Shown here in pieces: positions 14,171 to 22,971 of a stretch of 64,000 nt of DNA (position 1 is the stretch's first letter; the number at the start of each line of letters is the position of its first letter). The position numbers and the translations under genes are program-made. The DNA comes from Armatimonadia bacterium (GTDB taxonomy: Bacteria > Armatimonadota > Zipacnadia > Zipacnadales > UBA11051): contig JBDKRC010000137.1 in NCBI GenBank assembly GCA_039683575.1, positions 11,107-75,106 on the forward strand, in the 5' to 3' direction. The notes under the pieces are model-generated. The model saw only the letters and a program-made list of their open reading frames with translations. It ran no database searches and was not told where the DNA came from.

Positions 14171-16675
14171 CTAGGCCGTCACCGGCTCTTGCGGCACCAG
14201 CATCAGGCTCAGCTTGATCTCGTTGTCCTGCCCATCCACCTGCACGGTATCCCCGTCGTTGAACTCGCCCCGCAGCAGCGAACTGGCGATGCGGTTCTCC
14301 ACCTGCTTCTGGATCTCCCGCCGCAGCGGCCGCGCCCCGTATACCGGGTCGTAGCCACGGTGGGCCAGTAGCTCCTTGGCAGCCTGGGTCACGAACAGCT
14401 TGATGTTGCGGTCCGCCAGCGCCTGCTGCACCCTCTGCAGCATCAGGTCCACAATCTGCAGGATCTCTTCCTCGGTCAGCGCATGGAAGACGATGATCTC
14501 GTCTATGCGGTTGAGCAACTCCGGCCGGAAGGCATCCTCCAGCGCCTGCGTCACCCGCAAGCGCATCTGCTCATACTGCCGTCCCCGCTCCTCTTCGCTT
14601 CGCGCGCGGATCGTGTCCTTCTTCTTGTCCTCCAGCCTGAACCCAATCGTGCCACCGGTGCTGACGGGGCGGATATGCTCACTACCGATGTTGCTGGTCA
14701 TGATGATGACGGTGTTCTTGAAATCAGCCACCCGCCCAGTATTGTCGGTCAGGCGCCCGTCTTCCAGAACCTGCAGCAGGATATTGAACACGTCCGGATG
14801 GGCCTTCTCGATCTCGTCGAGCAAGATGACCCGGTACGGCCGCCGCCGCACTGCCTCGGTGAGTTGCCCGCCCTCTTCATACCCCACATATCCCGGCGGC
14901 GCACCGATGAGCCGCGACACGGAATGCTTCTCCATGTACTCGCTCATGTCGATCCGCACCAGCGCGTTCTCGTCCTCAAACAGGAACTCCGCCAGCGCCT
15001 TGGCAAGCTCTGTCTTGCCGACACCGGTCGGGCCGAGGAAGATGAACGAGCCGATGGGCCGCCGCGGGTCTTTCAGGCCCGCCCGCGCCCGACGAATGGC
15101 CTCCGAAACTGCCACAATGGCCTCGTCCTGGCCTTTGACCCGCTCGTGCAGGCGCTGCTCCATGTCCAGCAGCTTGTTGGCCTCTTCCTCGAACATCTTG
15201 AGCGCCGGTATGCCGGTCCAATCCGAGATGATTGCTGCCACGTCCTCCGCATCCACGGTGTCGTCAATATCCCCGCGGTCTGCCCAGGCTTGCTCTGCGG
15301 CCGGAAGCTTCTCCTGGAGCTCATCGATCTTCTGCTTGGTCTCCGCCGCCTCGTCATAGCGCCCGTCCTGCGCGGCTTCCGCGCCCTTTTCAGTCAGGGC
15401 CGCGATGTCCTCGCGCAGCTTCTCGGGCTTGGCGGGCAGATCGAAGATATCAATCCGCAGCCGCGCGCCGGCCTCGTCAATCACATCAATCGCCTTGTCG
15501 GGCAGGTTGCGGTCGGGAATGTATCGCTCTGACAGCTTGGCTGCGGCTTCCAGCGCCTCATCGGTGATCTTCACGCCGTGGTGCTCTTCGTACCGCGAGC
15601 GCAGACCTTTGAGTATCTCAATCGTATCCTCAACCGACGGCTCGTCCACCACGATTGGCTGGAAACGCCGCTCCAGCGCTGGATCCTTCTCGATGTTCTT
15701 GCGGTACTCATCGAGAGTCGTGGCGCCGATGGCCTGAAGCTCCCCGCGCGCCAGCGCCGGTTTGAGCATGTTCGAGGCATCCATCGCGCCCTCGGCCGCC
15801 CCTGCTCCGACGACTGTATGCAGCTCGTCAATGAACACGATGATCTCGCCCTGCGCCTCGCGGATCTCGTCCATGACGGCCTTTAGGCGCTCTTCAAACT
15901 CACCGCGGTACTTGCTCCCGGCGATCATCCCACCCAGGTCCAGGGCCAGCACGCGCTTGCCCTCCAGAATTGCTGGCACAGTGCCCTCGACAATCGCCGA
16001 GGCCAGACCCTCCACAATCGCGGTCTTGCCCACGCCTGCTTCGCCGATGAGTACCGGGTTGTTCTTGGTCCGCCGGCTCAGCACCTGGATCACACGCCGA
16101 ATCTCGCGGTCGCGTCCGATTACCGGATCAAGCTTCCCCTCGCGCGCCAGTTCCGTCAGGTCGCGCGAGTACTTCGCCAGCGCCTCATACTTGCTCTCTG
16201 CCGCCTCATCCAGTACCCGATGGTCACCGCGAATGGCCTGCAGGGCCTTGAGCGCATCTTCTTCGGTCATCCCCGCCTGCACCAGCAGCCGTGCCGCCGC
16301 TGTCTGCCCGTCCTCCAGGATCGCCAGGAAGATGTGCTCGCCGGCCACGAAGGTGTCTCCGAAACGCTCGGCAATGGTGTTGGCCAGGGTCAACACTCGC
16401 TGGGTGTGCGGGGTGATGTAAACCTGTTGCTGGTCACCCACTGGCGCCTGCGGCGCCTGTGGTCGTGAGGCCAACTCGCGCTCGATGCTGCCTATGACAG
16501 CACGGCGGTTCACTTTGGCCTCTTCCAGGATACGCGGCACGATGCCGCCTTCCTGTTCGAGGAACGCGAGCAGAATATGCTCGATGTCCAGTTGGTTATG
16601 CTTATAGCGCTGCAGTATCTGCTGGCTCTCAGCAAACACCTGCCGCGCCTGGTTAGTGAATTTTTCGAAGTCCAT
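14171..16675 (-). CDS. clpC: Clp/Hsp100 AAA+ chaperone, ClpC-like (two AAA modules, short middle domain, IGF-type ClpP-docking loop)
   Basis: N-terminus [39 protein letters not shown] (Clp_N). Walker A GEAGVGKT and GPTGVGKT. Middle domain of only about 70 aa. [10 protein letters not shown] loop as in ClpC (VGF/IGF), which ClpB lacks. Confidence 0.8.
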
Positions 16676-16685
16676 ATGTCATCAC

Positions 16686-17390
16686 TCAGTTGATTATTCT
16701 CGGTCTCCTCCCGCCAAAGCCACCGCGCGACTGGAGCAGGACCATACGTGCCACCATCACGGCCATGGCAAAGACCAGGAGGTTGATAACTACTTGGTGC
16801 TTTTCCTGAAGCCACGGCAACGGCCACAGGATCAGGCTCAGCGCGATCCAGACCAGGGCTGCTACTGCCAGTACCTGTCGTCGGGGGAAACACACCCTCG
16901 TCCGATGCAACCACTGCGCAAGCTCAACGCCACGCCATAGCAGGCCGATGCTTATACCGATACCTATAGCTCCAGTCAGGCGTGCTGAGTGCTCGCTGGC
17001 GCCCATCAGGTACGTAAACGCGCCCCCGATGAGCATCACGCTCGCCTTCAGAAGCCAATACCACTGAGCCACGGCCCGCACCGGCTGGGGGACCTCGATG
17101 TGCTCCTGTGCGCGCAAGATCTCCGCTGCCTCGTCCGCGCCGTCCGGGGAGGTCCAGACCACTATCGGCAGCACCCCGGGCACGCCCACCTTCAACACCG
17201 CCGTCTGCGGCTCAAGAGGGACCCGCATTGCCGGCAATCCCGCACCTTTCAAAGTACACACCGCCAGATCGGCCTCAAGCTCCTGAAACAGCCCGTGGTA
17301 GCTGGCTACTGGAACCCACTGGCTGGGTAGACCGGGCGTCATGGCTTGCTCGGCGCTCATCGGAGCACCCCCTGCGCGACAGATGCACAC
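16686..17390 (-). CDS. DUF2007-like domain fused to a C-terminal 4-5 TM membrane domain
   Basis: N-terminal part (WVPVASYHGLFQELEADLAVCTLKGAGLPAMRV...WTSPDGADEAAEILR) resembles the two upstream DUF2007 ORFs. C-terminal half is hydrophobic. Stop is 10 nt before clpC. Confidence 0.55.
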   Translation of the reverse strand: MCICRAGGAPMSAEQAMTPGLPSQWVPVASYHGLFQELEADLAVCTLKGAGLPAMRVPLEPQTAVLKVGVPGVLPIVVWTSPDGADEAAEILRAQEHIEVPQPVRAVAQWYWLLKASVMLIGGAFTYLMGASEHSARLTGAIGIGISIGLLWRGVELAQWLHRTRVCFPRRQVLAVAALVWIALSLILWPLPWLQEKHQVVINLLVFAMAVMVARMVLLQSRGGFGGRRPRIIN

Positions 17391-20963: not shown

Positions 20964-22859
20964 TTACTTTTCGTCCTCGGCCTCGAACTCCGCGTCAATC
21001 ACGTCGCCCTGCGCCGGGCGCTGACCGGCCTCGGGACCCGCAGCGGGACCCTCGGGCTGTGCGCCACCAGCGGCGCCGGCCTGCTCGTACATCCGCTGCG
21101 AGACCGCTGAGAAGGCCTGGTTGGCCCGGTCAATGGCCGCGCGGATTGCCGCGGCGTCGTCGCCCTTGACCGCTTCGCGGATCTCGCCGATCTTCGCGCG
21201 GATATCGTCGGCCTCGCCGCCGGGGACCTTGTCACCAAGGTCAGTGAGCGTCTTCTCAAGCTGGAAGGCCATCGAGTCGCCCTGATTGCGGGCCTCGGCC
21301 AGTTCGCGGAACCCCTCGTCCTCCGCCTTGTGACCCTCGGCCTCGGTGACCATGTTAGCGACCTCGTCGTCGCTCAGCGCGCCCGAGCCGGTGATCGTGA
21401 TCTTCTGCTCGACGCTCGTGGCCTTATCCTTGGCGGCAACATTCAGTATCCCGTTGCTATCGAGGTCAAAGGTGACCTCGATCTGCGGGACGCCACGCGG
21501 TGCCGGCGGGATGCCTGCGAGGTGGAACTTGCCCAGTGACTTGTTCTGGCTCGCCCGGCTGCGCTCGCCCTGCAGAACATGTACCTCAACAGTCGTCTGC
21601 ATGTCCGAGGCGGTGCTATAGGTCCGCGTCTGCCGCGTCGGGATGCTGGTGTTGCGCGGGATGACGATATCGAACACATCGCCCAGCGTCTCCACGCCCA
21701 GCGTCAGCGGCGTCACGTCTACAAGCACCATGTCCTGCCCGCCCCCGGCGCCGGTCAGCACGCCCGCCTGGATTGCCGCGCCGACCGCGACGACCTCGTC
21801 GGGGTTGATGCCCTTCTTCGGGTCCTTGCCCGTCAGGCGCTTGACAAGCTCCTGCACCGCCGGAATGCGGGTCGAGCCGCCGACCAGCAGCACCTCGTCG
21901 ATCTTCTCCTTGGTGATCCCCGCCTCGCGGATCGCGGTCTCGACCGCTACCGAGGTCTTCTCGATGAGATCGCCGATCAGTTCCTCGAGCTTCGCCCGCG
22001 TCAGCGTCATCTCCAGATGCTTGGGGCCCTCGCCCTCCACCTGGGTGATGAACGGCAGGCTCACATTGGTCTGCATGCTGTTGGACAGCTCGATCTTGGC
22101 CCGCTCGGCCGCGTCGCGCAGCCGCTGCAGCGCCTGGCGGTCCTTGCGCAGGTCAATGCCGGTCTCTTTCATGAACTCGCCGGCGAGATAGTCCAGTACG
22201 CGCTGGTCGAAGTCATCGCCACCGAGCCGCGTGTCGCCGGCCGTCGCGAGGACCTCGTAGTAGTCCCGCTCTTCTTCCTTGCCAAGCTCTACATCCAGAA
22301 TGGACACGTCGAAGGTGCCGCCGCCAAGGTCGTAGACCAGGATGGTCGCTTCCTTCTGCATCTTGTCGCGTTCCTGGTGCCCGTACGCCAGCGCCGCCGC
22401 CGTCGGCTCGTTGATGATGCGCAGCACCTCGAGCCCGGCAATCTCGCCCGCCTGCTTGGTCGCAGTGCGCTGCGTGTCGTTGAAGTATGCCGGTACGGTG
22501 ATAACCGCCTGCGTCACGGCCTCGCCCAGGTACGCTTCCGCGTCATTCTTCAGCTTCGTGAGGATGATCGCGGAAATCTGCTCGGGCGAGTAATCCTTGC
22601 CGTCAATGGTAGTCACGTCGCGACTACCCATCTTGCGCTTGATGGAGCTAATCGTACGCTCCGGGTTCAGGACGGCCTGCCGCTTGGCCTGCTGGCCCAC
22701 CAGCCGTTCACCGGTCTTCGCAAAGTGTACGACCGAAGGCGTGGTGCGGCCACCCTCCGGATTGACGATAACGGTCGGCTCCCCGGCCTCCACTACCGCC
22801 ACGCACGAGTTGGTCGTGCCAAGGTCAATGCCAATTGCTTTTGCCATAAGACTAATCAC
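20964..22859 (-). CDS. dnaK: molecular chaperone DnaK (Hsp70)
   Basis: [43 protein letters not shown]. Full-length, 631 aa. Confidence 0.95.
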
Positions 22860-22941
22860 CCCTGCATGCGATAAGGCGGTCCGGATTCCCGAGACAGCCT
22901 GAAGCCGCCGAACGCTGCCGACGGTTCATTTACTGAAACCG

Positions 22942-22971
22942 AGTATAAGACTTGAGTGTATTACTGTCAAG
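22942..22971 (-). promoter_or_regulatory. sigma70-type promoter (TTGACA-N17-TATACT) for dnaK with an overlapping HAIR-like HspR operator (CTTGACA-N7-ACTCAAG)
   Basis: The minus strand reads cTTGACAgtaatacACTCAAGtcTTATACT about 75-100 nt upstream of the dnaK start. HAIR consensus is CTTGAGT-N7-ACTCAAG. Confidence 0.6.

Follow-up and report, generated by a model that had tools for sequence, protein, structure and literature searches.

How is a heat-shock gene cluster controlled in which an Hsp70 gene, a repressor gene and an Hsp100 gene follow one another on a single strand, and in which grpE is missing? This question was raised by a stretch of 64,000 nucleotides (nt) from an Armatimonadia bacterium, called here the window. 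Its heat-shock cluster spans positions 14171-22859 and consists of 10 genes, all on the minus strand, in the order dnaK, hsp20a, hsp20b, a membrane-anchored open reading frame (ORF) of 169 amino acids (aa), dnaJ, hspR, three small genes named D1, D2 and D3, and clpC (Table 1). A first-pass annotation, made from the sequence, had proposed an HspR-type operon of 11 co-directional genes; the ORF list shows 10, and the shared direction was borne out for all of them. For the most part its interpretation holds, with several details in need of correction. The cluster is a real, conserved and lineage-specific form of a known regulatory operon, and we consider it likely that it works as an autoregulated heat-shock operon, repressed by HspR at a HAIR (HspR-associated inverted repeat) site and controlled by feedback from DnaK. 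To our knowledge, work on HspR operons has been confined almost entirely to Actinobacteria, Helicobacter/Campylobacter and Deinococcus.

The dnaK promoter and its putative HspR operator

The HspR protein passed the HspR equivalog model and also carries MerR_1 and MerR_2 domains, and its orthologs in related loci are 75-98% identical. Across positions 13000-24000, the only strong sigma-70-like site on the minus strand is the dnaK promoter, located upstream of the probable dnaK start codon (ATG at 22847; the ORF list extends the frame to a GTG at 22859). A putative HspR operator overlaps this promoter. When compared to the HAIR consensus, for which we used CTTGAGT-N7-ACTCAAG, it has two mismatches, both in the left arm, which doubles as the −35 hexamer. 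Bound to the predicted site, an HspR dimer would lie over both the −35 hexamer and the spacer of the promoter, which is the classical occlusion arrangement. No second HAIR site and no internal sigma-70 promoter was found when both were looked for before hspR and clpC.

One HAIR site with at most two mismatches was seen versus 0.15 expected. At least one such site was present in 13 of 100 shuffles, which, like the two mismatches, counts against the proposed operator; the site count taken alone is only suggestive. Related loci are cited below by L numbers: they came from four contigs carrying D3 homologs, from 17 metagenomic loci retrieved by HspR alignment and from the contigs of D1 homologs. 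A DnaJ scan of one genome per species returned only three distant loci and no close relative. When the dnaK leaders from the window and from L027, L029 and L031 were aligned, the sole conserved block was TTGACA-N7-ACTCAA(G/T)-N3-TATA(C/A)T; the leaders were otherwise dissimilar, and both promoter hexamers were kept in L027, L029 and L031. Among the 34 loci fetched, TTGACA-N7-ACTCAA was found only upstream of dnaK, and once per locus (L027, L029/L030, L031). As far as sequence comparison can tell, the conservation of this operator/promoter block is the decisive point in favor of the predicted operator, and the HspR-type operon of the first-pass annotation was upheld both by the equivalog model and by this conserved site overlapping the dnaK promoter.

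From the gene identities, the gene order and the operator/promoter block, which could be read directly, we infer the following mechanism. In unstressed cells, an HspR dimer on the HAIR-like operator, over the −35 hexamer and spacer of the only strong promoter, would block RNA polymerase. Free DnaK would help HspR to bind, by analogy with Streptomyces, in which DnaK reportedly acts as a co-repressor with HspR. Heat or proteotoxic stress would titrate DnaK or unfold HspR, and repression would be lifted. Transcription would then proceed from dnaK through hsp20a, hsp20b, the accessory ORF, dnaJ, hspR and D1-D3 to clpC, and would stop at the hairpin after clpC. The small heat-shock proteins (sHSPs) would hold unfolding proteins, DnaK and DnaJ would refold them with a GrpE encoded elsewhere, and ClpC, probably with a ClpP encoded elsewhere, would unfold or degrade the proteins that cannot be salvaged. 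Together, these products would form a complete aggregate-handling set, in which ClpC holds the place that ClpB has next to hspR in other lineages. Freshly made DnaK and HspR would finally shut the operon off again.

Table 1. Features of the heat-shock cluster, in the direction of transcription, with positions given in the window.
Feature	Position	Strand	Description
HAIR-like putative HspR operator	22951..22971	-	CTTGACA-N7-ACTCAAG; overlaps −35 hexamer and promoter spacer
Sigma-70-type promoter	22942..22970	-	TTGACA-17 nt-TATACT; 11/12 consensus matches
dnaK (Hsp70)	20964..22847	-	NF001413, 871 bits (cut-off 648)
GC-rich hairpin, dnaK-hsp20 spacer	20912..20949	-	6 + 8 bp stem; −41 kcal/mol; z −1.95; no U-tract
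hsp20a, sHSP	20475..20870	-	Alpha-crystallin domain; PF00011, 59 bits
hsp20b, second sHSP	20041..20478	-	PF00011, 74 bits; 4-nt overlap with hsp20a
Accessory 169-aa ORF	19511..20020	-	N-terminal transmembrane helix, then helical part; no family match
dnaJ, type I	18387..19502	-	J domain, zinc-finger domain, C-terminal domain; TIGR02349, 400 bits (cut-off 377)
Long hairpin, dnaJ-hspR spacer	18286..18371	-	25-nt arms, 92% complementary; about −55 to −69 kcal/mol
hspR, MerR-family heat-shock repressor	17872..18237	-	NF047375, 115.6 bits (cut-off 105)
D1, DUF2007-like	17584..17853	-	89 aa, acidic; constant member of the hspR-clpC interval
D2, D1 paralog	17391..17618	-	75 aa; variable member, absent in L017, L027, L029
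D3	16686..17360	-	DUF2007-like N-domain and hydrophobic C-terminal half; variable; placed by paralogy with D1/D2 and by orthologs
clpC, class I AAA+ unfoldase of ClpC type	14171..16675	-	834 aa; double Clp_N, two AAA+ modules, short middle domain
Perfect 12-bp hairpin between convergent genes	14119..14146	.	4-nt loop; likely operon terminator

Conserved core, accessory genes and the Hsp100 gene

The closest relative, L004, in which DnaK and ClpC are 98% and 99% identical to those of the window, has the order dnaK-hsp20-hsp20-dnaJ-hspR-HEPN-MNT-D1-D2-D3-clpC. L027 reads dnaK-hsp20-hsp20-dnaJ-hspR-D1-clpC, and L029 (GCA_964622325.1) has the minimal form dnaK-dnaJ-hspR-D1-clpC. The number of D genes varies, with one in L017, two in L010 and L014, and four in L008, where D3 is duplicated. 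The sHSP gene hsp20a was found in L004, L015, L019 and L027 and is absent in L029. Nine distinct loci have a complete interval from hspR to clpC (L004, L008, L010, L014, L016, L017, L027, L029 and the P0036 contig), and every one of them carries D1 there. Judging from these gene orders, the core of the operon is dnaK-dnaJ-hspR-D1-clpC; the sHSP pair is a frequent addition, and the accessory ORF, D2, D3 and HEPN-type modules are variable.

The first-pass annotation had also reported that grpE is missing, and this was confirmed over a wider range. No GrpE domain was detected among the 10 cluster proteins by Pfam and NCBIfam searches, tblastn with E. coli seeds gave no match to GrpE or ClpP in the window, and no PF01025 (GrpE) match was found among the called genes in the flanks of L027 and L029, with the L023 GrpE as a positive control; GrpE domains were likewise missing from the flanks of the other related loci with this gene order. 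The proposed explanation, that two sHSP genes and an orphan ORF had taken the place of grpE, is not supported. L029, in which dnaJ directly follows dnaK, lacks both grpE and the sHSP genes, and thus the sHSPs did not replace grpE; the ORF is moreover absent from L004. On the evidence of these gene orders, the sHSP pair, of which both members pass the PF00011 cut-off of 20.8 bits, and the ORF are independent accessory insertions and not a replacement. Other hspR operons without grpE were also observed: L001 (7993-11548), from an acidobacterial metagenome-assembled genome assigned to Terriglobales, reads dnaK-dnaJ-hspR, and L018 (3-2504) carries dnaK, then a gene encoding a 310-aa DnaJ homolog, then hspR. 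These two operons indicate that loss of the grpE linkage is not rare.

The accessory ORF is atypical in composition, with a GC content of 0.55 and a GC content at third codon positions (GC3) of 0.59, compared to 0.78-0.88 for its neighbors. Its product is identical to the NCBI protein ABFE08_09215 from an Armatimonadia metagenome-assembled genome, and an exact look-up of this protein returned no contig. The ORF is absent in L004, L015 and L026. It had been called an orphan, but is not a complete one: a weak syntenic homolog is present in L019 (976-1434; 32% identity over 82 aa, pairwise E 1e-7), and an exhaustive HMMER search of 1.8 billion representatives found one further cluster only (34% identical, E 7e-17), which is a tandem pair in L032 (115-576 and 708-1244), on short contigs that show no gene of the dnaK operon. 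A defense or phage gene was considered and rejected, with no PADLOC match. Sequence comparison points to a tiny, fast-evolving family, whose members measure about 150-180 aa and are anchored in the membrane at the N-terminus, and to an accessory insertion rather than a core gene.

The Hsp100 gene had been described as a ClpC-type unfoldase linked in place of clpB, and both parts of this description were supported, the type by the middle domain and the IGF loop and the place by the more distant HspR loci described below. The protein contains the Pfam domains Clp_N (two stretches), AAA, AAA_lid_9, AAA_2 and ClpB_D2-small, with readable Walker A and B motifs. Residues 2-821 align with residues 2-802 of Bacillus subtilis ClpC in one unbroken alignment that includes the short middle domain, and I678-G679-F680, in the second AAA+ module, sits opposite the V-G-F ClpP-docking loop of B. 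subtilis ClpC. ClpB lacks such a ClpP-docking loop, and none is present in the ClpB fragment of L024. The stretch from the lid to AAA_2 measures about 91 aa, versus about 155 aa in the genuine ClpB of L023. With the ClpB equivalog model TIGR03346 the protein reached 1126 of the 1232 bits required, and this match broke into two stretches at the middle domain, as did the matches to ClpB in the PDB. A ClpB that had lost half of its middle domain, acting as a DnaK-dependent disaggregase without ClpP and not as a ClpC-type protease partner, could account for the nearly equal scores of Thermus thermophilus ClpB (860 bits) and B. subtilis ClpC (865 bits), for the ClpB model being the top-scoring NCBIfam match, and for the position of the gene, which is that of clpB in more distant HspR loci. 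The sub-cut-off and broken ClpB match, the continuous alignment with ClpC and the exact placement of the I-G-F insertion make such a ClpB very improbable. The ClpC assignment is correct by all three sequence criteria used.

The more distant loci just mentioned are high-GC metagenomic sequences, L022 (72-5449), L023 (10-6595) and L024 (93-5467), all with the order dnaK-grpE-dnaJ-hspR-GNAT-clpB on one strand, an HspR 50-55% identical to that of the window and a ClpB with a long middle domain. Their gene order indicates that the placement of an Hsp100 gene after hspR predates this clade and is not peculiar to it. What appears from the loci compared to be peculiar to this clade is the switch to a ClpC-type unfoldase together with a DUF2007-like gene.

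On both sides, the cluster is flanked by unrelated genes, which gives it clean borders: downstream lie a convergent gene of unknown family, a CopZ-like gene and a copper ATPase gene, and upstream a divergent unknown gene. The ATPase is a copper-transporting P-type enzyme that has two heavy-metal-binding domains at its N-terminus; its gene and that of the CopZ-like HMA protein (98 aa) lie at 10568-13300, just downstream on the strand of the cluster, with the convergent gene (13470-14105) in between. In L027 (15419-16030) and L029 (14045-14701), a gene with prepilin-type N_methyl and SBP_bac_10 domains (DUF1559-type) was noticed shortly downstream of the operon; none was seen beside the operon in the window. 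Two plus-strand ORFs with a gene-like GC3 (17341-18033 and 17534-18064), opposite hspR, D1 and D2, were rejected as shadow ORFs because the minus-strand genes have homologs and family matches. Long shadow ORFs of this kind are a usual feature of high-GC DNA and may lead gene callers astray.

Transcript organization and the DUF2007-like proteins

The simplest reading, and a plausible prediction, is that the genes from dnaK to clpC are transcribed as one unit, because there is one strong promoter, no U-tract terminator was found inside the cluster on the minus strand, and a terminator hairpin follows clpC. In L027 and L029, hairpin-plus-U-tract terminators are located directly after clpC. All spacers except that between dnaK and hsp20a had been given in the first-pass annotation as no longer than about 20 nt. 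The 93 nt of the dnaK-hsp20 spacer and its hairpin, with a 14-bp stem, were confirmed, but the dnaJ-hspR spacer measures 149 nt; past hspR, the values are 18 nt (hspR-D1), −35 nt (D1/D2), 30-39 nt depending on the start codon (D2-D3), again beyond the stated limit, and 10 nt (D3-clpC). Hairpins occur at the same place after dnaK in L004, L027 and L029, with sequences in L027 and L029 that are unrelated to that of the window. The dnaK-hsp20 hairpin is thus conserved in position; it probably protects the dnaK message or attenuates read-through, and together with the hairpin of the dnaJ-hspR spacer it would probably set the relative amounts of proximal and distal message. An Rfam search of the whole window gave no family match, and the hairpins correspond to no known RNA element.

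Both arms of the hairpin at 18286-18371 are copies of one motif, (T)CGCG-ATCAGTGAT-CGCTCGTACAG, which is also found in the operon spacers of relatives. In the form tCGCGCCCAGTGGGCGC-TCGTACAGg, it is a 6-bp palindrome with a 3-nt center followed by TCGTACAG; it can also be written GCGCCCAGTGGGCGC-TCGTACAG or GCGNNCAGTGNNCGCTCGTACAG. Besides the window, sites were found in L008 (1675-1706 and 2422-2453), L014 (1728-1799), L027 (10393-10424), L009 (915-968) and L010 (1195-1226), at 33-50 nt upstream of the starts of clpC, D3, D4 or hspR, in a spacer that differs between relatives. In the window, and also in L014, the motif occurs as two inverted copies that pair into a 25-bp hairpin. The copies of the window read GCGATCAGTGATCGC, with two compensatory pair changes that represent only one evolutionary event. 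A ClgR-like or CIRCE-like operator was rejected by eye, as the half-site spacing differs and the window copy alters the would-be contact bases in a compensatory way. The motif may serve as a promoter or as a processing site, or it may be a mobile palindrome.

The motif and the hairpin weigh against a single transcript. The very stable 25-bp hairpin between dnaJ and hspR might terminate transcription or be cleaved and so split the message, and a conserved motif 33-50 nt upstream of gene starts could be an internal promoter. The cluster would then be composed of two or more head-to-tail units, with dnaK-hsp20-hsp20-orf-dnaJ under HspR/HAIR control and hspR-D1-D2-D3-clpC, or clpC alone, expressed separately from an internal promoter or by processing; the motif would be a promoter, operator or processing site, and the hairpin at 18286-18371 the boundary. 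Such an arrangement, which we regard as possible if rather doubtful, agrees with the 149-nt spacer in which that hairpin lies, with the absence of the motif from the sequence seen outside the operon in the window, L027 and L029, and with the fact that clpC has its own regulator in many bacteria. It agrees less well with the lack of any sigma-70-like promoter found there, with L029, which has no motif despite the same gene order, and with the dnaJ-hspR gap of only 55-68 nt in L027 and L029. The spacer occupied by the motif also varies by relative, as is more readily expected of a mobile palindrome than of a fixed control site, and the classical dnaK transcript ends with hspR. We retain the single transcript as the simplest reading.

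The three genes between hspR and clpC had been annotated as DUF2007 genes. Their position and their likeness to DUF2007 were supported, whereas the family assignment was not at the level of the Pfam cut-off (25.7 bits): PF09413 scored 19.1 bits for D1 and 19.2 bits for D2, and D3 had no Pfam match. Many D1 homologs carry precomputed PF09413 matches, and D1 orthologs reached 24.5-26.0 bits (26.0 for D1 of L014) and the D3 ortholog of L008 22.7 bits. D1 and D2 share 42-43% identity (E about 1e-11); D3 matches D1 through its N-terminal part, at 33% identity (E 7e-5), with better values among relatives. D3 probably starts at the ATG at 17360 (MSAEQA...), the ORF list giving a GTG at 17390, and its C-terminal half has two strong and two weaker hydrophobic helices; the structural model of D3 (predicted local distance difference test, pLDDT, 48) is usable only for the order of secondary-structure elements. 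If D2 uses the ATG at 17618, it overlaps D1 by 35 nt (17584-17618). Gene calls in L004, L006 and L008 have this overlap too, and it suggests translational coupling or a later D2 start.

D1 is under strong constraint, given that the 37 homologs retrieved with the family profile, all of D1 type, are mostly 60-93% identical to it. Its most conserved stretch is PPSxAPVVFDGFGGPM. The D1 model (pLDDT 72) has the order beta-alpha-beta-beta-alpha, in which this stretch is a low-confidence loop predicted to be flexible, as would be expected for a partner-binding loop. A fold search returned 2HFV, a solved DUF2007 member, as the first match (E 5e-3, probability 1.00, TM 0.54; weak scores), followed by ACT and PII-like domains. 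No function of DUF2007 is described in the searchable literature, which holds passing mentions only. D3 is absent in L010, L014, L017, L027 and L029, and only four D3 homologs were found among 5.8 billion proteins; by comparison of the loci, D2 and D3 are lineage-specific later duplicates of D1, D3 being probably tethered to the membrane, and only D1 is constant.

The strict gene neighborhood of D1 and its strong conservation lead us to infer, from these two features only, that D1 most likely works with this machinery, either as an adaptor or regulator of ClpC or as a cofactor of HspR/DnaK. Several points argue against giving this idea more weight. The PF09413 scores of the window proteins are below the cut-off, no solved adaptor structure of the kind of MecA, ClpS or McsB came up for D1 in the fold search or in the PDB profile search, the adaptor idea derives from gene neighborhood only, and unrelated genes also gather in the hspR-clpC interval, so that neighborhood there does not prove function. 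HEPN/MNT toxin-antitoxin pairs lie there in L004 (3360-4077), L008 (436-1150), L013 (656-1274) and L014 (572-1217), the P0036 contig has two such pairs and several small unknown genes, and in L016 a gene for an AbiJ_NTD4/HEPN protein (858-1871) separates the D genes from clpC; the window itself has no HEPN/MNT or AbiJ-like module. These HEPN modules would fall under the heat-shock promoter, and the interval looks like an insertion hot spot or a site of functional linkage. It is accordingly conceivable, although we find it unlikely, that D1-D3 are passengers, small ligand-binding (ACT/PII-like) or membrane proteins residing in an insertion-prone interval without a role in chaperone or protease function. 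The plasticity of the interval, the gain and loss of D2 and D3 between relatives and the best folds (DUF2007, ACT and PII-like, none of them a chaperone cofactor) are in line with passengers. D1, however, is present in every locus with a complete interval, even in the minimal operon of L029, it is nearly as conserved as its neighbors (in L008, 71% identical versus 83% for HspR and 84% for ClpC), all 37 profile homologs are of D1 type, and every D1 homolog whose context was looked up lies between hspR and clpC in this operon. We tentatively raise a further possibility, that D1 represents a new class of protein-quality-control cofactor whose loop docks on ClpC or on HspR/DnaK, with D3 recruiting the machinery to the membrane. 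On ClpC, it would stand in for MecA, McsB or ClpS in this phylum, as an adaptor or gate-keeper; on HspR/DnaK, it would be a DafA-like feedback modulator. If true, this would be the first function for DUF2007 and would explain why ClpC rather than ClpB is coupled to the DnaK system.

Comparison with known systems

The locus extends the HspR repressor-operator logic, as read from the conserved site, to a barely studied phylum, Armatimonadota, with three differences: the gene for the nucleotide-exchange factor is uncoupled, sHSP genes are built in, and ClpC, which is protease-coupled, has taken over from the disaggregase ClpB as the Hsp100 partner. D1 further offers a clear, testable lead for a domain without an assigned function, as in all contexts examined it was found nowhere but between hspR and clpC. 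In practice, the gain is modest and consists of a better annotation of stress genes in Armatimonadota and a candidate cofactor of ClpC or HspR.

The closest parallel is the actinobacterial dnaK-grpE-dnaJ-hspR operon of Streptomyces, Mycobacterium and Bifidobacterium, which shares with the window HspR, a HAIR-type repeat over the dnaK promoter, hspR downstream of dnaJ in its own operon with autoregulation involving DnaK, as proposed for the window, and an Hsp100 gene in the regulon. The dnaK transcript of this classical operon ends with hspR, and in actinobacteria clpC is controlled by ClgR. HspR regulons of dnaK and clpB with HAIR sites are documented in bifidobacteria, and clpB is under HspR in actinobacteria (PMC9004370). 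The window differs in that there is no grpE in or near the operon, two sHSP genes lie inside it, a single operator has its left arm fused to the −35 hexamer, and hspR is not the last gene: four co-directional genes follow, the DUF2007-like genes and the ClpC-type Hsp100 gene, and a terminator-like hairpin appears only after clpC.

The operon of T. thermophilus, with the order dnaK-grpE-dnaJ-dafA-clpB, is alike in that the DnaK system and an Hsp100 gene are clustered, with a small lineage-specific protein of about 80 aa encoded between dnaJ and the Hsp100 gene. DafA is the DnaK-DnaJ assembly factor in Thermus (PMC3727329). Unlike the window, this operon has grpE and ClpB and no hspR, and D1, being DUF2007-like, is likened to DafA by position and size only.

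In the ctsR-mcsA-mcsB-clpC operon of B. subtilis, a repressor gene is followed by small modulator or adaptor genes and then clpC, the operon is stress-induced, and ClpC has the same domain architecture. Only the layout of the genes is alike, since no match to the CtsR, McsA and McsB families was found in the 10 proteins with Pfam and NCBIfam: the repressor in the window is HspR, of the MerR family, the D proteins belong to another fold family, and the genes are fused to the dnaK operon.

The distant loci L022-L024 share an HspR ortholog after dnaJ, then one small gene, then an Hsp100 gene. They differ by keeping grpE, by a GNAT acetyltransferase gene in place of the DUF2007-like genes and by a true ClpB. 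The D proteins, finally, resemble DUF2007 (PF09413; solution structure 2HFV) in sequence pattern and in the beta-alpha-beta-beta-alpha order; the window members score below the family cut-off, and the D subfamily stands apart by its fixed genomic context and by a long, conserved loop rich in glycine.

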